Shown here in pieces: positions 3,241-12,725 of a stretch of DNA of 12,725 nucleotides. The notes beneath the pieces are model-generated. The model made no database searches. It was not told the origin of the DNA and saw only the letters and a list, made by a program, of their open reading frames with translations. Both the position numbers and the translations under genes were made by a program. The stretch lies in the IMG/VR virus record IMGVR_UViG_2859827302_000006. One strand, given 5' to 3'. This DNA comes from a virus. Taxonomy: Duplodnaviria; Heunggongvirae; Uroviricota; Caudoviricetes. The number at the start of each line of letters is the position of its first letter. The stretch's first letter is position 1.

Positions 3241-3300
3241 TAAATAGCGAAAACCCGCGAGGTCGCCGCCCCGTAACGGGTCCATATGCCGGAAAGGACC
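3241..3300 (-). other. Lambda-type cos site (cos-2) with cosQ-like flank, oriented toward the Nu1-like gene
   Basis: Minus-strand reading GGTCCTTTCCGG...CCCGTTACGGGGCGGCGACCTCGCGGGTTTTCGCTATTTATGA matches lambda cosQ/cosN/left-end sequence; cohesive-end 12-mer is the complement of 3260-3271. Confidence 0.8.
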
Positions 3301-6483: not shown

Positions 6484-6657
6484 TTTTTCAAGCGTCTCAC
6501 TTCGTCGCAGTTGGGATTTTCGGTTTTTCTATGTGTGTGTTTCATAAGTATTTTTTTACCCCTCACTTTTGAGGATGTATACAGGTCGAAAAGTGAGGGA
6601 GAGCGGGCTAATTTTGGCCCTCTTTCTATCCCCCTCGCTTTTGCTCCTCACTTTTAT
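6463..6657. repeat. Iteron array, putative replication origin: seven copies of CTCACTTTT (two variants, one inverted) around an AT-rich spacer
   Basis: Copies at 6465-6475, 6478-6488, 6495-6504 (variant), 6561-6570, 6589-6599 (inverted), 6634-6642 (variant) and 6646-6655; AT-rich stretch 6510-6560; lies directly 3-prime of the Rep ATPase gene. Confidence 0.6.
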
Positions 6658-8054
6658 AGCGGCGCTACATCATCCCCATCGATACGAATAACCCCATCTT
6701 TTTCCAGCTTGTACAGCCAGCGCCGGAAGTTTTTCATTTCATACCCCAGCTTTTTCATGTCATCACGTAACAGCGGGATCGTGCACTTGTCGCCGTTCTG
6801 TGTGCGTGAACGGATGCACCCCCATAGCGCGGTATGGTTTTCCGTCTTGTTCCCTGCCTCCTCGATGCGCTCCAGTTCAACAGGAGGGCGCGGATCATCC
6901 ACCACCACCAGCGACGTGATTAATTCACCGTCAGCGTCGGTAAAAAGCTCCACCACGCGTAAGTCATATGCGGCTTCTTTGAGTTCCTCCGCGTCCTTCA
7001 TTTTGGTGCATGAGATAACCAGCGCTTCGCTTCCTGCGTCCTCCCTGCGTATCCGGTATTCAGCATCCAGCGAAGCACGAAATGCACTGGAACCGCGCGC
7101 GCCTTTCGTCTCATCCTTGCCGGAATGGTGAACCACCAGCACCGTGGCCCCTGTGCGTCGTTTCAGTTCGTCACAACCACGGATAAACGCCCCCATATCA
7201 CGGGAATCATTTTCATCATTCCCACCAAAGCAACGCGCCAGCGTATCCAGAATAATCATGCGTACAGGTTTACCCGTTTCCCGCTCCACCTGACGGGCAG
7301 CGATAACCATTTCATCAACATCAAGCGGGGCAGCCGGAAAGATGGGGCGGTTTACCAGATACAGATTTTTCACCTGCTCATCGTGCACAACCTCCCAGGC
7401 TTTTACACGACGCGGAACACCTATACCGCCTTCACCAACCACATAGAGAACCGCACCATGTGCAACCCTGCGGCCTCCCCACTGGCGACCAGTGGCAACA
7501 TGGCACGCCCACGATCCGGCAAGGAATGATTTATAGGACCCGCTAGCTCCGTATATGCTGCATAGCGATACCGCCGGAATAATCCCCTTAACCACGTAAT
7601 CCAGTTGCGTGTCGTATCCGGTAGATCCAACGCTCATCGGTAGCGTGGTTTTTCGCTGGTGGTTTTTTTCTTCCGCCGGCTCTTTCCCGCGCACCCGTTC
7701 CAGGTATTCGCGCCAGTTCTCCCGCATATGGCTGTGCATCCCTTCGGGGTAATAATTCGCATCAGTTACACCCGCCGCCGCCAGCTTGTGCGCAATGGCA
7801 TTAATATTTGATGGCCTGATGTGGCCTGCCTTGTACAGCCGGACACAATAGCGCCCCTCGTCGATGATTCTCAGGTCTGCCAGTTCATCCAGTTGATCAT
7901 CAGCCAGCACAACGGGAGGCACATTATCGCCAGCCAGTCGCCCGTCCTGTTCCTGCCACTGTTTCGCATGTGCCCAGGCATCACTACCCGCAAAAATAAT
8001 GACTTCGGTCATCTTGTCGTAAGGCTGTTTTTTTAAGTTCGGTGCGCTTTTCAT
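6654..8054 (-). CDS. RepA-like RecA-fold (AAA_25-type) replication ATPase, putative initiator-helicase (466 aa)
   Basis: Walker A GASGSYKS, Walker B-like MIILDTLARCFGG, motif VLVVHHSGKD and a basic C-terminal region; ATG at 8054 with AGGGG ribosome-binding site and ATGA overlap with the upstream gene. The N-terminal 150 aa have no recognisable primase motifs. Confidence 0.85.
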   Translation of the reverse strand: MKSAPNLKKQPYDKMTEVIIFAGSDAWAHAKQWQEQDGRLAGDNVPPVVLADDQLDELADLRIIDEGRYCVRLYKAGHIRPSNINAIAHKLAAAGVTDANYYPEGMHSHMRENWREYLERVRGKEPAEEKNHQRKTTLPMSVGSTGYDTQLDYVVKGIIPAVSLCSIYGASGSYKSFLAGSWACHVATGRQWGGRRVAHGAVLYVVGEGGIGVPRRVKAWEVVHDEQVKNLYLVNRPIFPAAPLDVDEMVIAARQVERETGKPVRMIILDTLARCFGGNDENDSRDMGAFIRGCDELKRRTGATVLVVHHSGKDETKGARGSSAFRASLDAEYRIRREDAGSEALVISCTKMKDAEELKEAAYDLRVVELFTDADGELITSLVVVDDPRPPVELERIEEAGNKTENHTALWGCIRSRTQNGDKCTIPLLRDDMKKLGYEMKNFRRWLYKLEKDGVIRIDGDDVAPL

Positions 8055-8350
8055 TTCTTGCCCCTGAATCCGTTAACCATGGTTTTCAGCTTCTGGATGT
8101 TTGCCCGTGCCCTGGCGTTGCTGGTGGGCACGTTATGCGGCGCGGTCTGTACCAGAGAAAAATCACGCCGGAACTGATAAACAGGCATCACGCAATCATA
8201 TTCGTAACCTTCACGGCGGTAGGTTACACGCCGTTCTTCCACGCCCTTAATCATTACCGTGCCGCCGTACTGGTCGCGGTAAATATCACCGCGCGTAAAT
8301 TTAGGGTGAGTGTTGCCACTGGCAGTTAAGCCAGAATATTTAAGTTTCAT
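8051..8350 (-). CDS. Hypothetical protein (99 aa)
   Basis: GGAGAA ribosome-binding site before the ATG at 8350; stop overlaps the Rep start (ATGA). Confidence 0.55.
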   Translation of the reverse strand: MKLKYSGLTASGNTHPKFTRGDIYRDQYGGTVMIKGVEERRVTYRREGYEYDCVMPVYQFRRDFSLVQTAPHNVPTSNARARANIQKLKTMVNGFRGKK

Positions 8351-8355
8351 TATTT

Positions 8356-8589
8356 TTATTCTCCGGTGTGCTGTTCTTTATATCTGTCGTGCAATAGATC
8401 TATTTCTTGCAGTTCCATTATTACAGGCTCAAGAAGCGTTATTAATGCCGTGGCAATTCTTGATTTTTGTTTGTCGCGTTCATTGTCGCCAAGTGTTTCA
8501 AGCCATATGCGCAATATTTCCAGCATGTTTTCACTGTGAGAAAGTGCAAGAAATGCGCGGTCTATTGTTTCGTGGTAAATATCACGCAT
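8356..8589 (-). CDS. Hypothetical protein (77 aa)
   Basis: ATG at 8589 with GAGGA upstream; start overlaps the stop of the 196-aa gene by 8 nt. Confidence 0.5.
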   Translation of the reverse strand: MRDIYHETIDRAFLALSHSENMLEILRIWLETLGDNERDKQKSRIATALITLLEPVIMELQEIDLLHDRYKEQHTGE

Positions 8590-9172
8590 GGCTTACATCC
8601 TCAGGAAATTTTCTTCTGTAACGCGCCTCTGCCACATATTCCGCATAATCGGCGGCGATATTCAGTACATCAAGCCCCGTTGATTTATATTCTCTCGTGG
8701 AAAGTAAGAAAAAAGCCGCTCTAATAAGTTCTGGCATTGACGAAAGCGCATCAGCCGCATCATCAGGAACGCCGGAAAATTCCTGTTTCAGGGAATTAAA
8801 ACGATCATCACGCATGTTTACCCCCTGAATGACCTGATAACCGCAACTGGTCAGCAACTCGATAAATTCCGGCAGTGTGCCGAAACAGCAATCATCACGC
8901 AGCCGTTCGCAGGATACCTCGACGCCGTTTTCGTAGTGACTCACCATACATCCGGTAAAATGCAGATCATCATCGTGATGGCTCGTTGACGGCTTAATCA
9001 GTCGCGCACGTTCCGCCAGTTCCAGCAATGCTTCAACGCTTCCGGCAATTGCACCATCCGGCAGGTGATAATTACGCACTATGCGCCCGTTCTCCACATT
9101 GACCAGCAACTGCCCGGTAAATTTCTCATCAAACTGAATGCTGTTAAGGTCAGAAATTGACAGATTATGCAT
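8582..9172 (-). CDS. Hypothetical protein (196 aa; start taken at the internal ATG 9172 rather than the ORF-track start 9190)
   Basis: AGGAGG sits 6 nt upstream of the ATG at 9172; protein-like composition, no recognisable motif. Confidence 0.65.
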   Translation of the reverse strand: MHNLSISDLNSIQFDEKFTGQLLVNVENGRIVRNYHLPDGAIAGSVEALLELAERARLIKPSTSHHDDDLHFTGCMVSHYENGVEVSCERLRDDCCFGTLPEFIELLTSCGYQVIQGVNMRDDRFNSLKQEFSGVPDDAADALSSMPELIRAAFFLLSTREYKSTGLDVLNIAADYAEYVAEARYRRKFPEDVSHA

Positions 9173-9386
9173 GGTGCACCTCCTGCACATCAGCCATGAT
9201 AATTTTTCCGGCCTTATCCAGTGCCTGATCGGCTTTTAGCTGCACAAATGCTAAATGGAAGATGCATTCTGATTCTCTGGCTGCGTGTTTATGCGCCCTG
9301 TCAGCAATAACAGAAATATCAATAAGCGCGTGCATCAGCGTAGTGAGCGCGGCGGCGGCTGCGTCCGGTGTGGTTTTATTGCACAT
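9165..9386 (-). CDS. Hypothetical small protein (73 aa; start at internal ATG 9386)
   Basis: GGAGGGG ribosome-binding site 4-5 nt upstream of the ATG at 9386; Ala-rich, helical-looking; short overlaps with both neighbours. Confidence 0.5.
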   Translation of the reverse strand: MCNKTTPDAAAAALTTLMHALIDISVIADRAHKHAARESECIFHLAFVQLKADQALDKAGKIIMADVQEVHHA

Positions 9387-9606
9387 GTACCCCTCCGCAT
9401 TTTTTTTCGTTAGAAATAAGCGTTCTTCTTTCCTGTTCATCGCTCAGGAATACGCAGACCTCACCGCTAAGGCGTTTAAGTAAGCCGATGATTGCCCCTG
9501 ATTCGCTGTCGGTCATCATGCTAGGGTAATCCTCTGCCAGTGCGCAAATAACTTCGATTTGGTGGGCGCGTTCTGCTGCCTGTTGTAGTGTGATTTCCTG
9601 GCTCAT
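9376..9606 (-). CDS. Hypothetical small protein (76 aa)
   Basis: ATG at 9606 overlaps the preceding stop (ATGA); GGGGG upstream. Confidence 0.5.
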   Translation of the reverse strand: MSQEITLQQAAERAHQIEVICALAEDYPSMMTDSESGAIIGLLKRLSGEVCVFLSDEQERRTLISNEKKCGGVHVQ

Positions 9607-9803
9607 AAGCCTACCCCCTGACGAATACGGGCAGCAAATACCATCACGCAGCCAGCCGGAGATTGCTGGCGTGCTTCCTGTTCGCTGGTGGCCTCAATGG
9701 TAATCACGCGCGGTTGTGCCGTGCTCAGGGCGATAAAACGCCAGATGTATTTATTCAGGTTGTGCGAGTCCCGCCCTTTCGGGTGTGTGGTATGATTTCT
9801 CAT
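9603..9803 (-). CDS. Hypothetical small protein (66 aa), first gene of the main leftward operon; it is the C-terminal part of the 428-codon stop-free frame
   Basis: In-frame ATG at 9803 with GAGG ribosome-binding site, about 90 nt downstream of the predicted minus-strand promoter. Confidence 0.4.
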   Translation of the reverse strand: MRNHTTHPKGRDSHNLNKYIWRFIALSTAQPRVITIEATSEQEARQQSPAGCVMVFAARIRQGVGL

Positions 9804-9900
9804 AGCTACCTCGATACTGTTGCTATCGTTGGTGGTTAGAAGCCCCGTTACTGCTCCTACAGTGCGGGGTTTCGTCGTTTCTGTGCCTTTCATCAATAAG

Positions 9901-9981
9901 GTGTAAGACACAATGTAAAACAATGGTGTCTTACACGTCAACCCTTCAAAATATTTTTTTTTCGTGTATATTGTCTTACAC
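9901..9981. promoter_or_regulatory. Divergent promoter/operator switch between the RHH gene (+) and the main operon (-)
   Basis: Inverted repeat GTGTAAGACAC (9901-9911) / GTGTCTTACAC (9926-9936) plus half-site GTCTTACAC (9973-9981); + promoter TTCAAA (9945-9950)-16 nt-TATATT (9967-9972); minus promoter TTGACG (complement of 9936-9941)-17 nt-TTACAT (complement of 9913-9918). Confidence 0.55.
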
Positions 9982-10002
9982 CAAAAACATGAGGGGTTAA
10001 AC

Positions 10003-10182
10003 ATGGCAACGGGTCCAAAGAATGCAAAATCACAATCTGTAACTGCACGTATTGCCCATGAAATTATTGAAGGCATGGAGAACGTGAAAGAAGAAGGCGA
10101 AAGCACGGGACAGTTTATAAACGCAGCCATGCGCGGCGAAATCAAACGCCGCCAGCGCCGCAAGGCCAAAGAGCAGGAGTAA
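10003..10182 (+). CDS. Ribbon-helix-helix (CopG/Arc/MetJ-like) DNA-binding protein, about 59 aa; candidate repressor of the switch
   Basis: ATG at 10003 with GAGGGG ribosome-binding site; the pattern SVTARIAHEIIEGMENVKEEGESTGQFINAAMRGEIKRR fits a beta-strand plus two helices; the ORF-track start at 9964 (GTG) lies inside the promoter. Confidence 0.7.
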   Translation: MATGPKNAKSQSVTARIAHEIIEGMENVKEEGESTGQFINAAMRGEIKRRQRRKAKEQE

Positions 10183-10224
10183 CCATCACCAGCGCCGTGG
10201 TGTGAGTAACTACGGCGCATTGCT

Positions 10225-10413
10225 ATGCAGGACAACACAATGACCGATAAAGAATTGACCAAAACATTATCACCGGCACGGAAAAGACGGCGCAGAAAGA
10301 TAGAGCATGAATCAGAAAGATTCGCGCCATGTGCTTTTGCCCTTGAGCAATTCCTTAAAGAGTACAGGGAAAAGCGCTCATTGCAGGTATGGCAACGAAC
10401 TGAACCAGACTGA
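10225..10413 (+). CDS. Possible small Arg/Lys-rich protein co-transcribed with the RHH gene (likely start ATG 10240)
   Basis: Weak AGGA ribosome-binding site; basic stretch ARKRRRRK; followed by a + strand terminator. Could instead be untranslated. Confidence 0.35.
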   Translation: MQDNTMTDKELTKTLSPARKRRRRKIEHESERFAPCAFALEQFLKEYREKRSLQVWQRTEPD

Positions 10414-10490
10414 TTGCATTGCCCACCAGCCGCAAATGTGGCATTATTGGCAATGCTCATGCGTTGGGGATAACGTGTAGCTTGTGTCGA

Positions 10491-10520
10491 GGGGCCACCG
10501 TAGCGGGTGGCCTTTGTTTT
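10491..10520 (+). terminator. Rho-independent terminator of the RHH transcription unit
   Basis: GGCCACC-GTAGCG-GGTGGCC (10493-10512) followed by TTTGTTTT; a second weaker hairpin plus T-run lies at about 10613-10646. Confidence 0.6.
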
Positions 10521-10526
10521 GCCCGT

Positions 10527-10889
10527 TATTCGGCAATTGTGGCGCTTCTCCACATGGTTGATATAATCCCACTGCTCAGATTCATTTTTTGCGCAGTAGG
10601 TTAATTGTTCACAAAGGCGCTCCGGCAACGGGGCGCTTTTTGTTTTTATTAGTTTGTAGAAACCTGACTCAGAGATAATGCTCATATTCTGATTGCCGTC
10701 AGGGGTGTAAGTTAAATTTACTCCCTTTTTATCATCAAACATCTGCAACGCTCTGGCGTTAACAATATTGGTTTCACTCCCGCCAGTAAGGCCGGAAATA
10801 ACCGGAATAATTTCGGCAAAATTTTGCAGATTCTGTTTTTCAGGACGAACGAAGCCCCGCCCTTGTTCGGGAGAATATCCAGTATTCAT
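10527..10889 (-). pseudogene. Possible decayed gene with a Bro-N-like antirepressor N-terminus; the frame runs on without a stop to 9603
   Basis: The first 95 or so codons look protein-like and include ISESGFYKLIKTKSAPLPE, reminiscent of the Bro-N motif; downstream the frame is antisense to the RHH operon and rich in C/S/R; weak ribosome-binding site. Confidence 0.3.
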
Positions 10890-10941
10890 GGTTAGATCTC
10901 TGTATTAGTGGATGGGTGGCGGCTGTGTGCCGCCAGCCTGA

Positions 10942-11130
10942 TTAGTGAACTGCCTCGCAGCTGTCCTTCCATGCCAGAACTTCGGATAAAGACCAGCCAA
11001 CGGAACGACCGCCCAGCTTACGCCGTGATGGGAATTGTCCGGCTTTTTCCAGGCGGTACCGACATGAGCGGCTCAGGCCTGTAAGTTGCTGACATTCTTT
11101 TTCACGTATAAAGCGATCTGTGCTTAACAC
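10942..11130 (-). CDS. alpA: AlpA-family (prophage CP4-57 / P4 Vis-like) HTH transcriptional regulator, 62 aa
   Basis: FIREKECQQLTGLSRSCRYRLEKAGQFPSRRKLGGRSVGWSLSEVLAW fits the AlpA/MerR-like HTH pattern; GTG start at 11130 with GGGGGA ribosome-binding site; directly downstream of int. Confidence 0.8.
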   Translation of the reverse strand: MLSTDRFIREKECQQLTGLSRSCRYRLEKAGQFPSRRKLGGRSVGWSLSEVLAWKDSCEAVH

Positions 11131-11164: not shown

Positions 11165-11215
11165 GGTGGATTATTGGGTTGGGTTGTGTCGGATTGTGTC
11201 AGGGTGTTTGTGGAA
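11165..11215. repeat. Repeated TTGTGTC / GGGTTG elements upstream of alpA
   Basis: GGGTTGGGTTGTGTCGGATTGTGTCAGGGTGTTTGTGG, with GTTGTGTC at 11183-11190 and ATTGTGTC at 11193-11200. Confidence 0.4.
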
Positions 11216-11404: not shown

Positions 11405-11470
11405 TTTTAACCCGTTGTTCCATTTTGTTCCTTGTTGTTCGTCGTTGTGTCTCGTTGTTTCACGTTGTCC
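11405..11470. repeat. Six tandem 10-bp-phased GTTGT repeats between the int stop and alpA
   Basis: cccGTTGTTc / cattTTGTTc / cttGTTGTTc / gtcGTTGTGt / ctcGTTGTTt / cacGTTGTCc at 11411-11470, one per helical turn. Confidence 0.5.
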
Positions 11471-11495: not shown

Positions 11496-12725
11496 TTATA
11501 TTTCTCTGGCTATTGGCAATGTGGTTACGTTTTCATGTGTTCCCGCCAGTATCCCTAACCGCTCCGTCCACATATCCAGCGCGTCACGTTTCGCATCCAG
11601 ATAACGGGAATGGTTATAGACTCGTTGCATCCCTGGCATCTGATGACCTGTAAGCTGCTCCACGACGTGAGGATCCACGCCTAAATCGTTCAGCATCGTT
11701 GTAAAGGTGCGCCGGATGTCATGCAGTGACCAGTGAGGGTGTTTTAGCCTCCTGTGCGCTAATCTGCCGTACTGCGACACGCTTGTTTCCTGTTTCACTT
11801 CCCCCAGCAATAAGCCCGTGTGCCTGTTCTGCTCCACCAGCTGCGTGACGAACGGCAGTATTGCTTCCGGTATGGGCCGGAATATTGCCACCTTCGTTTT
11901 GCTGTGTTCTTTCGGCACGGTCCAGAGCATTTCGGTAAAATCCCACTCGCTGATCTCCGATAACCTCAGTTCTACCGTCCGGCATCCGAAAACAATCAGG
12001 AGGCGGATTAGTGCGACGTAGTAAGGGGAAAATATTTTTTTGTCCAGTGCCTGCAATAATTCGCCAAGTTCTTTGGTGCTTAAGACACGCTCGCTTATAT
12101 CCGGTTTTTTCCCAACGTCCGCCACACTCATATCATCAAGAACGTTGCTGATTGCATAGCGCCGCCTCCGGCAGAACTTAAGCGCCTGTTTGCACGTCTG
12201 TAGCAAGAATCCGGCAGTAACAGGCGTTCGCTTTGCCACCTGGTCAAAACAGGCCAGCCAGTGCCGTAGCTCGCATTTATCCAGCGGCATAGCACCAATG
12301 TGCTGTATTACGTGATTATTAAGGCGCTTTTTCAGGGCGGCATAATCCACGCGGTTTTCCTTTACGTAAGACTCAAGCCAGTAGGTAAGCGCATCGCCAA
12401 CCGTTACGGGCTTTAACGCTTTCTGTACGGTGTAATTCATCTCATGACGTGGATTTTTCCCCTCAGCAAGCCAAGCGCGACACTGTGCCGCTTTTTCCCT
12501 GGCAGCTTTCAGACTCAGATCAGGATAATTTCCCAGCTTAATCCGTTCCGGTCGTGCTCCCCTTCCCGTTCCGGCCCTGTAGGTGAAATACCAGGTTAAA
12601 AGGCCGCTGGTTGAATGCCTGACGCTCAGGTTTCCACCGTCATTAAGAAAGGCTGTTTTTTGGGCGGGTGTGCCGTTGATTTTCCTTAGCTGTGTATCAC
12701 TCAGTTTGTTAAGTGCTCTGCGCAT
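11496..12725 (-). CDS. int: Tyrosine site-specific integrase, P4-type (409 aa); start codon at the window edge
   Basis: N-terminal arm-binding region with the LNDGGNLSV motif (compare P4 Int LADGGGLYL); C-terminal catalytic signature with R in GCRTVELR, HxxR in LHDIRRTF and the Tyr region GHQMPGMQRVYNHSRYL. Confidence 0.92.
   Translation of the reverse strand: MRRALNKLSDTQLRKINGTPAQKTAFLNDGGNLSVRHSTSGLLTWYFTYRAGTGRGARPERIKLGNYPDLSLKAAREKAAQCRAWLAEGKNPRHEMNYTVQKALKPVTVGDALTYWLESYVKENRVDYAALKKRLNNHVIQHIGAMPLDKCELRHWLACFDQVAKRTPVTAGFLLQTCKQALKFCRRRRYAISNVLDDMSVADVGKKPDISERVLSTKELGELLQALDKKIFSPYYVALIRLLIVFGCRTVELRLSEISEWDFTEMLWTVPKEHSKTKVAIFRPIPEAILPFVTQLVEQNRHTGLLLGEVKQETSVSQYGRLAHRRLKHPHWSLHDIRRTFTTMLNDLGVDPHVVEQLTGHQMPGMQRVYNHSRYLDAKRDALDMWTERLGILAGTHENVTTLPIAREI

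Follow-up and report, generated by a model that had tools for sequence, protein, structure and literature searches.

Does a Gram-negative phage satellite that is switched on by the activator AlpA also carry a repressor of its own? The question is raised by a stretch of 12,725 nucleotides (IMG/VR record IMGVR_UViG_2859827302_000006, Caudoviricetes; the whole stretch is called the window below), in which a small plus-strand unit, coding for a 59-residue protein and preceded by three copies of a short box, faces away from the main minus-strand genes. We observed a sibling relation between the window and EcCICFT073, which serves as the model Gram-negative phage-inducible chromosomal island (PICI) (PMC6092414). 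AlpA activates its own promoter in these islands and helpers induce alpA; the paper that described this has AlpA as activator only, and left the existence of a global or master repressor 'unclear' (PMC6092414).

We consider it rather likely that the 59-residue protein is a ribbon-helix-helix (RHH) repressor of the three boxes, with autoregulation and a bypass by read-through, and that it forms the immunity switch of the satellite. The earlier note on this DNA had proposed that an RHH protein autoregulates and shuts the divergent promoter, as a layer of control beside AlpA. This core of the proposal is now supported computationally by the co-variation of boxes and protein, by the cassette swap between islands and by gene context. 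The promoter, the RHH-like open reading frame (ORF), the small basic ORF and the terminator that it had listed for the plus-strand unit were all found in place (Table 1).

The boxes vary together with the protein

Three exact copies of the 10-mer GTGTAAGACA are present in the window (at 9901, and at 9927 and 9972 on the minus strand), all within 81 bp. From shuffled sequences 0.01 copies are expected, and none of 200 shuffles reached three. The third 10-nt copy, TGTCTTACAC, lies at 9972-9981, and no further copy of the box was found elsewhere in the island. The copies belong to 11-bp boxes of the form GTG-N5-CAC, named O1, O2 and O3, and each pseudo-symmetric box is probably the site of one dimer.

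We compared the locus with 77 related loci from one scan of species-representative genomes (Escherichia, Citrobacter-like genera, Serratia, Yersinia, Pectobacterium, Dickeya, Xenorhabdus, Proteus, Providencia, Pantoea, Erwinia and others). A satellite marker was present within 3 kb in the same arrangement at 68 of the 77, with alpA/int downstream or Icd-like/primase genes upstream, on the opposite strand to the RHH gene; the contrary arrangement was seen at none (0/77). The upstream 150 nt had a single architecture throughout. The order from far upstream is an O1-type box, an O2-type box at -77, xTCAA, a T-rich tract, GTATACTG and an O3-type box at -32, which ends CAC-C and is followed by a Shine-Dalgarno sequence and the RHH ATG. 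The O1-equivalent box stands at -98 to -113 from that ATG, either direct or inverted, and the boxes are kept at about -100, -77 and -32 in 71/79 loci. The xTCAA directly after O2, which reads TTGAx on the minus strand and is the -35 element there, is present in all 49 distinct upstream regions.

The box sequence itself is not constant. The GTG...CAC frame of the box and R16 of the protein do not change, while the central bases of the box differ between loci and agree among the three boxes of one locus. The mean number of mismatches between O2 and O3 of one locus is 0.79 in 10 nt; swapping O3 among loci raises it to 5.3, and a value as low as the observed one came up in 0 of 10,000 permutations. 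There are about 19 classes of box and beta-strand, and each strand variant goes with one box core (Table 2). Relative to O2, the O1 box is in direct orientation in most classes; a few, the window's among them, have it inverted. Since O1 and O2 are direct repeats in most relatives, the long palindrome that had been read as a shared operator is incidental: the conserved unit is the 11-bp box, and O1 flips its orientation between classes.

Table 2. Beta-strand variants of the RHH-like protein and the box that goes with each (a partial list; several more classes exist)
Beta-strand	Box	Remark
SQSVTARI, SQSVTVRV, SQSITVRV	GTGTCTTACAC	class of the window
SQMTT(V/I)R(I/V), including SQMTTVRI	GTGAAATACAC
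SQLFTVRV	GTGAAACACAC
SLQ(V/L)SVRL	GTGAACACCAC
SQQLNARF	GTGAATCGCAC
SQQIVSRV	GTG(A/C)ATGCCAC
SQKLQ(A/T)RA	GTGGA(C/T)TCCAC
S(K/R)KLEARV	GTGTCAGCCAC
SKRFDVRV	GTGTCGGACAC
SKKMQARV	GTGTGCTCCAC
SQALKARV, SQSLKSRV	GTGTGGCCCAC	SQALKARV is the CFT073 class
SQTLAARV	GTGTTGAACAC

The small protein has a predicted ribbon-helix-helix fold

The protein is a member of the NCBIfam family YlcI/YnfO (NF041551; 64.8 bits against a cutoff of 30, E = 5e-18), and the identical gene in RefSeq is labelled 'YlcI/YnfO family protein'. We found no published functional literature on this family; a 2026 survey has it as an accessory gene of cf-PICIs only (PMC13612085). A tblastn search of 50,697 phage records returned no relative, yet the protein matches two PHROG families.

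The AlphaFold (AF2) model, with a predicted local distance difference test (pLDDT) score of 88, has an extended N-terminus followed by helices at 19-28 and 35-58, as in an RHH fold. Across 40 aligned homologues we observed a pattern of the same type (an invariant K-S, an alternating strand, the invariant R16, P/A-H-E, a helix, a turn and a second helix). In the turn G32-E33-S34-T35, E33 and S34 are invariant and the other two nearly so; in the beta-strand, positions 13, 15 and 17 are hydrophobic and 12 and 14 variable. We accept the RHH fold at the level of prediction. Neither a curated family nor a solved protein of the RHH superfamily was recovered by sequence profile, and membership by sequence is not demonstrable.

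The positions equivalent to 12 and 14 point to the DNA in RHH proteins. With scores that are themselves insignificant, hhalign pairs R16-x-P-x-E with R13-W-P-R-E of Arc and R-M-P-M-E of Mnt, and by the register of Arc the residues predicted to face the DNA are the invariant R16 and the two variable ones, 12 and 14. That the protein would dimerise and place an antiparallel beta-ribbon in the major groove, as RHH proteins do, is supported indirectly by the joint variation of box and strand.

The switch region is exchanged as a cassette

The window and EcCICFT073, compared over 9560-10720, are 98.3% identical up to 9845, 60.8% over 9846-10140 and 99.7% from 10141 onward. The two islands are 100% identical in AlpA, in the integrase and in the small basic ORF. 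A second swap was found in locus L085 (E. coli CH10508), which shares 99% identity with the window across some 10 kb and has the block 9882-10151 replaced. The replacement codes for a 101-residue RHH variant (9640-10057 in the coordinates of L085), 45% identical, with the beta-strand SQQLNARF, and carries the boxes GTGGTATTCAC and GTGAATACCA at a spacing of about 22 bp. The C-terminal tail GEIKRRQRRKAKEQE is identical in four E. coli specificity classes. As judged from these alignments, exchange of a cassette of about 300 bp is the behaviour of an immunity module. PGAP annotated the Icd-like and YlcI/YnfO genes of L085 as overlapping on opposite strands.

The boxes stand on two predicted promoters

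The inverted repeat formed by O1 and O2 had been said to overlap both predicted promoters. This is so for the minus-strand promoter, P_minus, on which both boxes lie. It is not so for the plus-strand promoter, since O2 ends 8 bp upstream of its -35 element; O3 alone overlaps that promoter, and the claim of a third half-site on the plus transcription start was borne out for the predicted start. Repression in the quiescent island, which is what these positions suggest, is well supported by comparison among the loci.

The positions also bear on an alternative, namely that the RHH protein binds the boxes mainly as an activator or a traffic controller (for example, like Mnt of P22, favouring its own promoter through silencing of the opposed one, or acting on helper-phage DNA) and is not a master repressor. 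Some RHH proteins, such as AmrZ, do activate; the RHH promoter, with its weak -35, would allow for an activator, and AlpA alone suffices for induction (PMC6092414). However, the boxes occupy repression positions, both on the near-consensus P_minus and on the -10/+1 region of the protein's own promoter, the island has no other box, and tblastn found no relative in the phage records. We regard this alternative as unlikely.

The unit lies antisense inside an Eta-like reading frame

The earlier note had taken P_minus for the start of the main operon and had missed a minus-strand ORF of 428 codons that holds the whole unit. This long ORF directly follows alpA and runs through the terminators, both plus-strand ORFs and the operator region, and P_minus is internal to what resembles the P4 eta/kil gene. 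By its sequence, then, the unit is antisense inside a conserved ORF and not in an intergenic gap, which is new.

The frame is kept open to a degree that we could estimate. The antisense frame starting at RHH codon position 3 was open across the RHH gene in 80/80 loci and continued past the operators to beyond the RHH stop in 71/80, against 0/80 for the other two frames. The frame of the Icd-like gene itself was open across the whole RHH gene in 22 of the 34 loci with a recognisable Icd-like gene (33 fetched plus the window). When the loci were reduced to 43 representatives (<=80% nucleotide identity), the antisense frame was free of stops over the RHH coding sequence in all 43, where synonymous-codon shuffles leave it open in about 45% per gene (product of the probabilities, 1e-17), and the 111-nt promoter/operator stretch was open in 39 against 7% expected (binomial 8e-41), with 1-10 stops in the other frames; these statistics overstate independence, as the loci are related, and the contrast between frames is unaffected by this. 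Two compensating 1-nt indels keep the long frame in CFT073, and the 101-residue RHH variant of L085 is still spanned by a 474-codon ORF. NCBI annotation in many genomes has an 'Icd-like protein' of 360-540 residues here, in some cases with Pfam Bro-N or PF10554. Conservation among the E. coli homologues was 0.90 for the N-terminal part, 0.93 for the Icd-like part and 0.46 for the operator-encoded part. Judging by these counts, the long frame is under selection to stay open, and its middle need not be a folded protein.

It could be argued that the long ORF is a by-product of RHH composition and ancestry, untranslated or irrelevant, and that the locus is a simple divergent gene pair. The RHH family is without tyrosine, so most potential antisense stops are removed; the middle of the ORF is poorly conserved and unstructured in prediction, and PGAP often annotates only the short Icd-like gene. 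Against this stand the counts above (43/43 and 39/43 open, with stops in the other frames), the frame-keeping pair of indels in CFT073, and the nested arrangement of P4, for which a role of translation has been demonstrated according to the part of PMC10111431 that treats P4 (citing Forti 1999). We find the by-product account quite unlikely.

The base before the terminal CAC of the O2 and O3 boxes (position 8), read in the O2/O3 orientation, is never T in any class. A T there would put an in-frame stop (TCA on the plus strand) into the conserved antisense frame, and the overlapping ORF may constrain the evolution of the operators.

The nested, in-frame Icd-like protein would be the first product of transcripts from the predicted P_minus. 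An ATG at 9893 was considered as the start of the minus-strand gene and set aside: it lacks a Shine-Dalgarno sequence, CFT073 does not keep the codon, and the PHROG match at that point reflects annotations of the long ORF. We also discounted the PHROG label 'transcriptional repressor' of the Icd-like family, which is no evidence of function and probably comes from an old P4 'cI' ORF annotation. The leader between O1 and the nested start holds a conserved hairpin; from there down to 9804 follow a conserved TCTAACCA-CAACGTTA box, the Shine-Dalgarno sequence and the ATG. The hairpin is terminator-like on the plus strand and is possibly a site of processing, stability or antitermination.

At the other end of the long ORF, the Shine-Dalgarno sequence of its ATG (10889) is weak. 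P4-type loci have an overlap of 4 nt between vis and the Eta-like ORF instead. A GC-rich hairpin (GGCGGC..GCCGCC, no U-tract) lies at 10916-10938 on the minus strand, directly after the alpA stop and before this ATG.

The reader of the boxes and the small basic ORF

Another factor (AlpA, the product of the long ORF or a helper-phage protein) might read the boxes while the small protein does something else. Any product of the swapped cassette would co-vary with the boxes, and the antisense peptide overlaps the same DNA. AlpA, however, is 100% identical in the window and CFT073 though their boxes differ; the antisense peptide over this stretch has no structure in prediction, and no part of the long ORF is less conserved; and the variation of the small protein is concentrated at strand positions 12 and 14, with the hydrophobic positions kept. 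This makes a different reader very unlikely.

All homologues of the second plus-strand ORF, which is small and basic, came from E. coli and Shigella (36 clusters, 64-98% identity). Its core SPARKRRRRK..ERFAPCAFALE is conserved and the indels are in-frame, and on this pattern it may be a real gene. It was absent from all 77 RHH loci of species other than E. coli, and a domain search gave no match, with no toxin or ParA. The suggestion that the RHH protein and this ORF form a toxin-antitoxin-like or partition-like pair, with the boxes as autoregulatory operator or centromere, is hardly credible and we reject it, as the basic ORF is lineage-restricted and without a domain match, the conserved pair with a toxin or NTPase that marks a type II toxin-antitoxin or ParB/ParG-type cassette was not found, the RHH gene of Xenorhabdus is followed by a convergent alpA within about 240 bp, and the boxes sit on two promoters at fixed positions with no centromere-like array. 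The idea that a gene of the YlcI type is the sign of a neighbouring cos site, as in DLP12, was also dropped; the two cosN copies of the window are about 7 kb off.

A 10-bp inverted repeat, GCGCCGTGGT / ACTACGGCGC, lies after the RHH stop and ahead of the small basic ORF (10192-10218); it could be an RNA hairpin modulating co-expression of the two plus-strand ORFs. A weak terminator-like site on the minus strand (10400-10376) is within chance expectation.

A model for the switch

From the co-variation and the box positions we infer binding and repression by the RHH protein, and the switch would work as follows. The protein, probably as one dimer per site, would bind the three boxes. In the quiescent island it would be made from its own weak promoter and occupy O1, O2 and O3. 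O2 (on the spacer and -35) and O1 (on the -10 and +1) would close the strong sigma-70 promoter P_minus inside the Eta-like ORF, which would otherwise drive the nested Icd-like gene and the downstream replication genes; O3, on the -10/+1 of the RHH promoter, would give negative autoregulation. When a helper turns on alpA, transcription from the alpA promoter would pass the plus-strand terminators and cross the repressor gene in the antisense direction. Being free of stops, the long frame would let ribosomes follow this read-through, as translation of P4 eta prevents termination. The AlpA-driven transcripts could express the downstream genes despite the repressor, bypassing P_minus, and the convergent, antisense transcription would probably lower RHH synthesis, so that P_minus opens.

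The steps of read-through, collision and derepression are suggested by the analogy with P4 and by the boundaries of published reporters. We placed the helper-inducible reporter pJP1290 at 11528-10456 of the window from the supplementary primer table; this stretch is identical in CFT073, and pJP1291 is its alpA-deleted control. As the reporter spans 11528-10456, AlpA-dependent minus-strand transcription passes both plus-strand terminators, toward the plus-strand unit, and this point is experimental. None of the published constructs includes the RHH gene or the boxes (PMC6092414), and because the reporters stop at 10456 they would have missed the repressor.

Several points weigh against this account. 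Repressor binding, repression and promoter activity are predictions from computation. Overproduction of AlpA is enough to induce EcCICFT073 (PMC6092414), which means that the repressor does not dominate AlpA. The RHH assignment found no RHH model in a Pfam search at E <= 0.1, no PDB match by phmmer or profile search and none by Foldseek; hhalign was weak (Arc, E = 0.0037 at 9% probability; Mnt, E = 0.15). Co-variation of box and protein is confounded by physical linkage, and the antisense peptide is in the same cassette; it is informative despite linkage in that three separate boxes change together while the spacers between them diverge freely. The promoter scan was at chance level (2 hits against 1.9 expected), and the predicted promoters are supported because they are conserved in relatives, not by the scan itself; the -35 of the plus promoter is poor and unconserved. 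The middle of the long ORF is poorly conserved and, outside the Icd-like domain, has an AF2 pLDDT of 29 (from a shallow alignment), so that its product may be irrelevant, and the long frame differs from the Icd frame in about 12 loci. Co-resident copies differ in class no more than chance would have it (P = 0.18). We had considered that co-resident islands avoid a shared class, and gave this up: 1 of 28 pairs share one, which is not significant given the many classes.

The island and its other features

The 901 bp round the switch had matches in 1702 of 5426 complete E. coli genomes (about one third), and the closest genomic copies lie between roxA and phoQ, which is the EcCICFT073 site. This site, together with the integrase, AlpA, a RepA-like helicase and two cosN copies, identifies the window as a Gram-negative PICI of the EcCICFT073 type. 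The coordinates of the features are collected in Table 1.

Table 1. Features of the window, ordered from the integrase to the cos sites
Feature	Position	Strand	Remark
Integrase	11496-12725	-	ORF list and domain search
alpA	10942-11130	-	Pfam Phage_AlpA, E = 3e-18; proposed source of AlpA-dependent read-through into the long ORF
Long Eta-like ORF, 428 residues	10889..9603	-	degenerate Bro-N-like N-terminus, antisense middle, Icd-like C-terminus (residues 381-424)
Intrinsic terminator 2	10611-10652	+	-20.5 kcal/mol, z = -4.8; the stronger, better one, just beyond the range of the earlier note
Intrinsic terminator 1	10490-10522	+	hairpin of -20.6 kcal/mol, then U-tract UUUGUUUU
Small basic ORF, 57 residues	10240-10413	+	probably co-transcribed; lineage-specific, outside the conserved switch
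RHH-like ORF, 59 residues	10003-10182	+	Shine-Dalgarno GAGGGG; predicted repressor, YlcI/YnfO family
Box O3, TTGTCTTACAC	9971-9981		overlaps last 2 nt of the plus-strand -10, covers the predicted plus start
RHH promoter, predicted	9945-9972	+	TTCAAA, 16-nt spacer, TATATT (-10 at 9967-9972); promoter scan
P_minus, predicted	9941-9912	-	-35 TTGACG (9941-9936), 18-nt spacer, -10 TACATT (9917-9912); promoter scan
Box O2, GTGTCTTACAC	9926-9936		reverse complement of O1; fills the P_minus spacer, last base shared with the -35
Box O1, GTGTAAGACAC	9901-9911		abuts the -10 of P_minus, covers its predicted start at about 9905
Specificity cassette	9846-10140		leader hairpin arm, O1-O3, both promoters, RHH residues 1-46
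Conserved leader hairpin	9839-9873	-	between O1 and the nested start; compensatory changes in both stems, 27 loci
Nested in-frame Icd-like gene, 66 residues	9603-9803	-	ATG at 9803, Shine-Dalgarno GAGG; PGAP (H1, CFT073), NCBIfam phage_ICD_like
Other minus-strand content		-	several small ORFs, RepA-like helicase, capsid-type genes
cosN, exact lambda/phi80 type, GGGCGGCGACCT	2501-2512, 3260-3271	+, -	two copies in opposite orientation

The two cosN copies agree with the two functional cos sites reported for EcCICFT073. The replication module (6654-9600) is mosaic with respect to CFT073 (L001/L002): the window has a RepA-like AAA_25 helicase of 466 residues and different small ORFs, and CFT073 and H1 (a 99.7% match) have a 584-residue primase-family protein instead. 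The int-alpA-immunity flank is nearly identical in the window, CFT073 and H1. Tandem repeats of 10 bp with an ACAAC core lie between int and alpA (11414-11468), and a second set, of ACACAA type, just upstream of alpA (11173-11200); both are candidate binding sites for AlpA or, as arm-type sites, for the integrase. The Rfam 'int-alpA RNA' motif is present between int and alpA in 5 related loci and not in the window.

Significance of the locus

A large class of satellites in Gram-negative bacteria now has a candidate immunity repressor, together with its three operators and its target promoter. In later surveys these islands appear as unidirectional elements that carry Bro-type genes and immunity RNAs of the P4 type, and YlcI/YnfO is listed as accessory at most (PMC10111431, PMC13612085). 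The locus suggests a link between PICI regulation and the eta/kil paradigm of P4, with protein and RNA immunity as alternative modules at one place. The locus also shows, as a rare and deeply conserved case, an entire regulatory gene that lies, operators included, antisense within another reading frame. The classes amount to a natural series of repressors and operators, in which specificity appears to map to two beta-strand residues, and the series should be useful for RHH recognition codes and for orthogonal genetic parts.

A wider generalisation can be offered only tentatively, and we think it possible rather than probable. Satellites (Gram-negative PICIs, cf-PICIs and P4-like elements) would have two interchangeable immunity modules, the CI RNA or the RHH cassette, in one Eta/Icd gene. 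The RHH version would be a transcription-collision toggle that silences the repressor, with the frame open only for protection by ribosomes, and the classes, at least about 19, would be orthogonal immunity types swapped as a 300-bp cassette.

Comparison with known systems

The earlier note had likened the switch to Stl or CI. The role of repressor in that comparison stands, and the nearest analogues are P_LE/CI of P4 and Mnt of P22 rather than Stl. The Stl repressors are larger, of the helix-turn-helix type, and come off when they bind helper proteins. Stl (Rpr) of the Staphylococcus aureus pathogenicity islands (SaPIs) and Gram-positive PICIs is divergent from the replication operon and keeps the island silent (PMC6092414). 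The likeness is a satellite-encoded repressor (here predicted) divergent from replication genes; the difference is that here it is a 59-residue RHH protein, and that the counter-signal is probably AlpA-driven transcription and not a protein anti-repressor.

The K-12 proteins YlcI/YnfO (DUF3950; DLP12 and Qin) are of the same NCBIfam family (YlcI, 37.6 bits) and have the same beta-helix-helix pattern, although BLASTP gave no alignment between the window protein and K-12 YlcI. The K-12 ylcI gene (L080, 8252-8640, in DLP12) is unlike the present one in being divergent from nohD, next to the cos of a lambdoid remnant, and without the three-box architecture.

The immI region of P1/P7 (c4 RNA - icd - ant) is similar in that an Icd-type small protein comes first on an immunity-controlled transcript and an antirepressor-type gene is linked. 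P1 uses the C4 antisense RNA, whereas here no C4 was found and the regulator is predicted to be a DNA-acting protein.

The immI region of P22 has a small RHH repressor divergent from an antirepressor-type gene, with operators over close, opposed promoters and with autoregulation. The present locus likewise has a predicted RHH-type repressor divergent from a Bro-N/Ant-like gene, and the beta-strand register matches. Unlike in P22, there are three 11-bp boxes against one operator of 17-21 bp, the repressor gene is antisense in its target ORF, and the carrier is a satellite and not a phage (with no relative in the phage records by tblastn); sequence similarity is not significant. As the architecture matches and homology is not demonstrable, we treat P22 immI as an analogue and not as a fellow member of one family.

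The closest parallel is P4. The part of PMC10111431 that deals with P4 immunity (citing Forti 1999 and Sabbattini 1995) gives a constitutive promoter inside eta, whose transcripts are terminated via the CI RNA and seqA, and Kil as a nested, truncated Eta. Full-length Eta, in the same part of that source, is translated only from the upstream late promoter, coupled to vis, and prevents termination (PMC10111431). We observed that P4 eta has 214 codons and directly follows vis, the AlpA homologue, and that NCBIfam phage_ICD_like matches the C-terminus of both P4 Eta (E = 1.4e-20) and the window ORF (E = 2.9e-18). The two elements share an AlpA/Vis gene followed by a long ORF with an Icd-like/Kil end and a nested in-frame start, with the replication genes downstream. 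A promoter internal to the long ORF is predicted for the window as well; it is near-consensus (TTGACG-18-TACATT), its -35 being the element conserved in 49/49 regions. In both, activator-dependent late read-through would be expected to bypass the immunity-controlled internal promoter (PMC10111431).

The immunity determinants themselves differ. Rfam C4 (CI) and isrK (seqA) were found in 4/4 P4-type loci (P4 and three E. coli loci; 61-85 bits), which served as positive controls, and neither was found in the window (E <= 1) or in 19 other RHH loci; the leader had been considered as a C4 RNA of the P4/P1 type and was rejected on the same search. The RHH hidden Markov model, conversely, had no match in the P4-type loci. 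In this small sample, the RHH cassette and the CI/seqA RNAs are mutually exclusive occupants of the same gene. P4 and the P4-type loci have these RNAs and no RHH gene; the island instead carries a predicted repressor gene and its three operators, antisense within the long ORF. P4 is controlled by termination of the transcript, whereas control here is probably at initiation. The protein cassette appears to replace RNA immunity, and this apparent substitution is what is new at this locus beside its antisense embedding.

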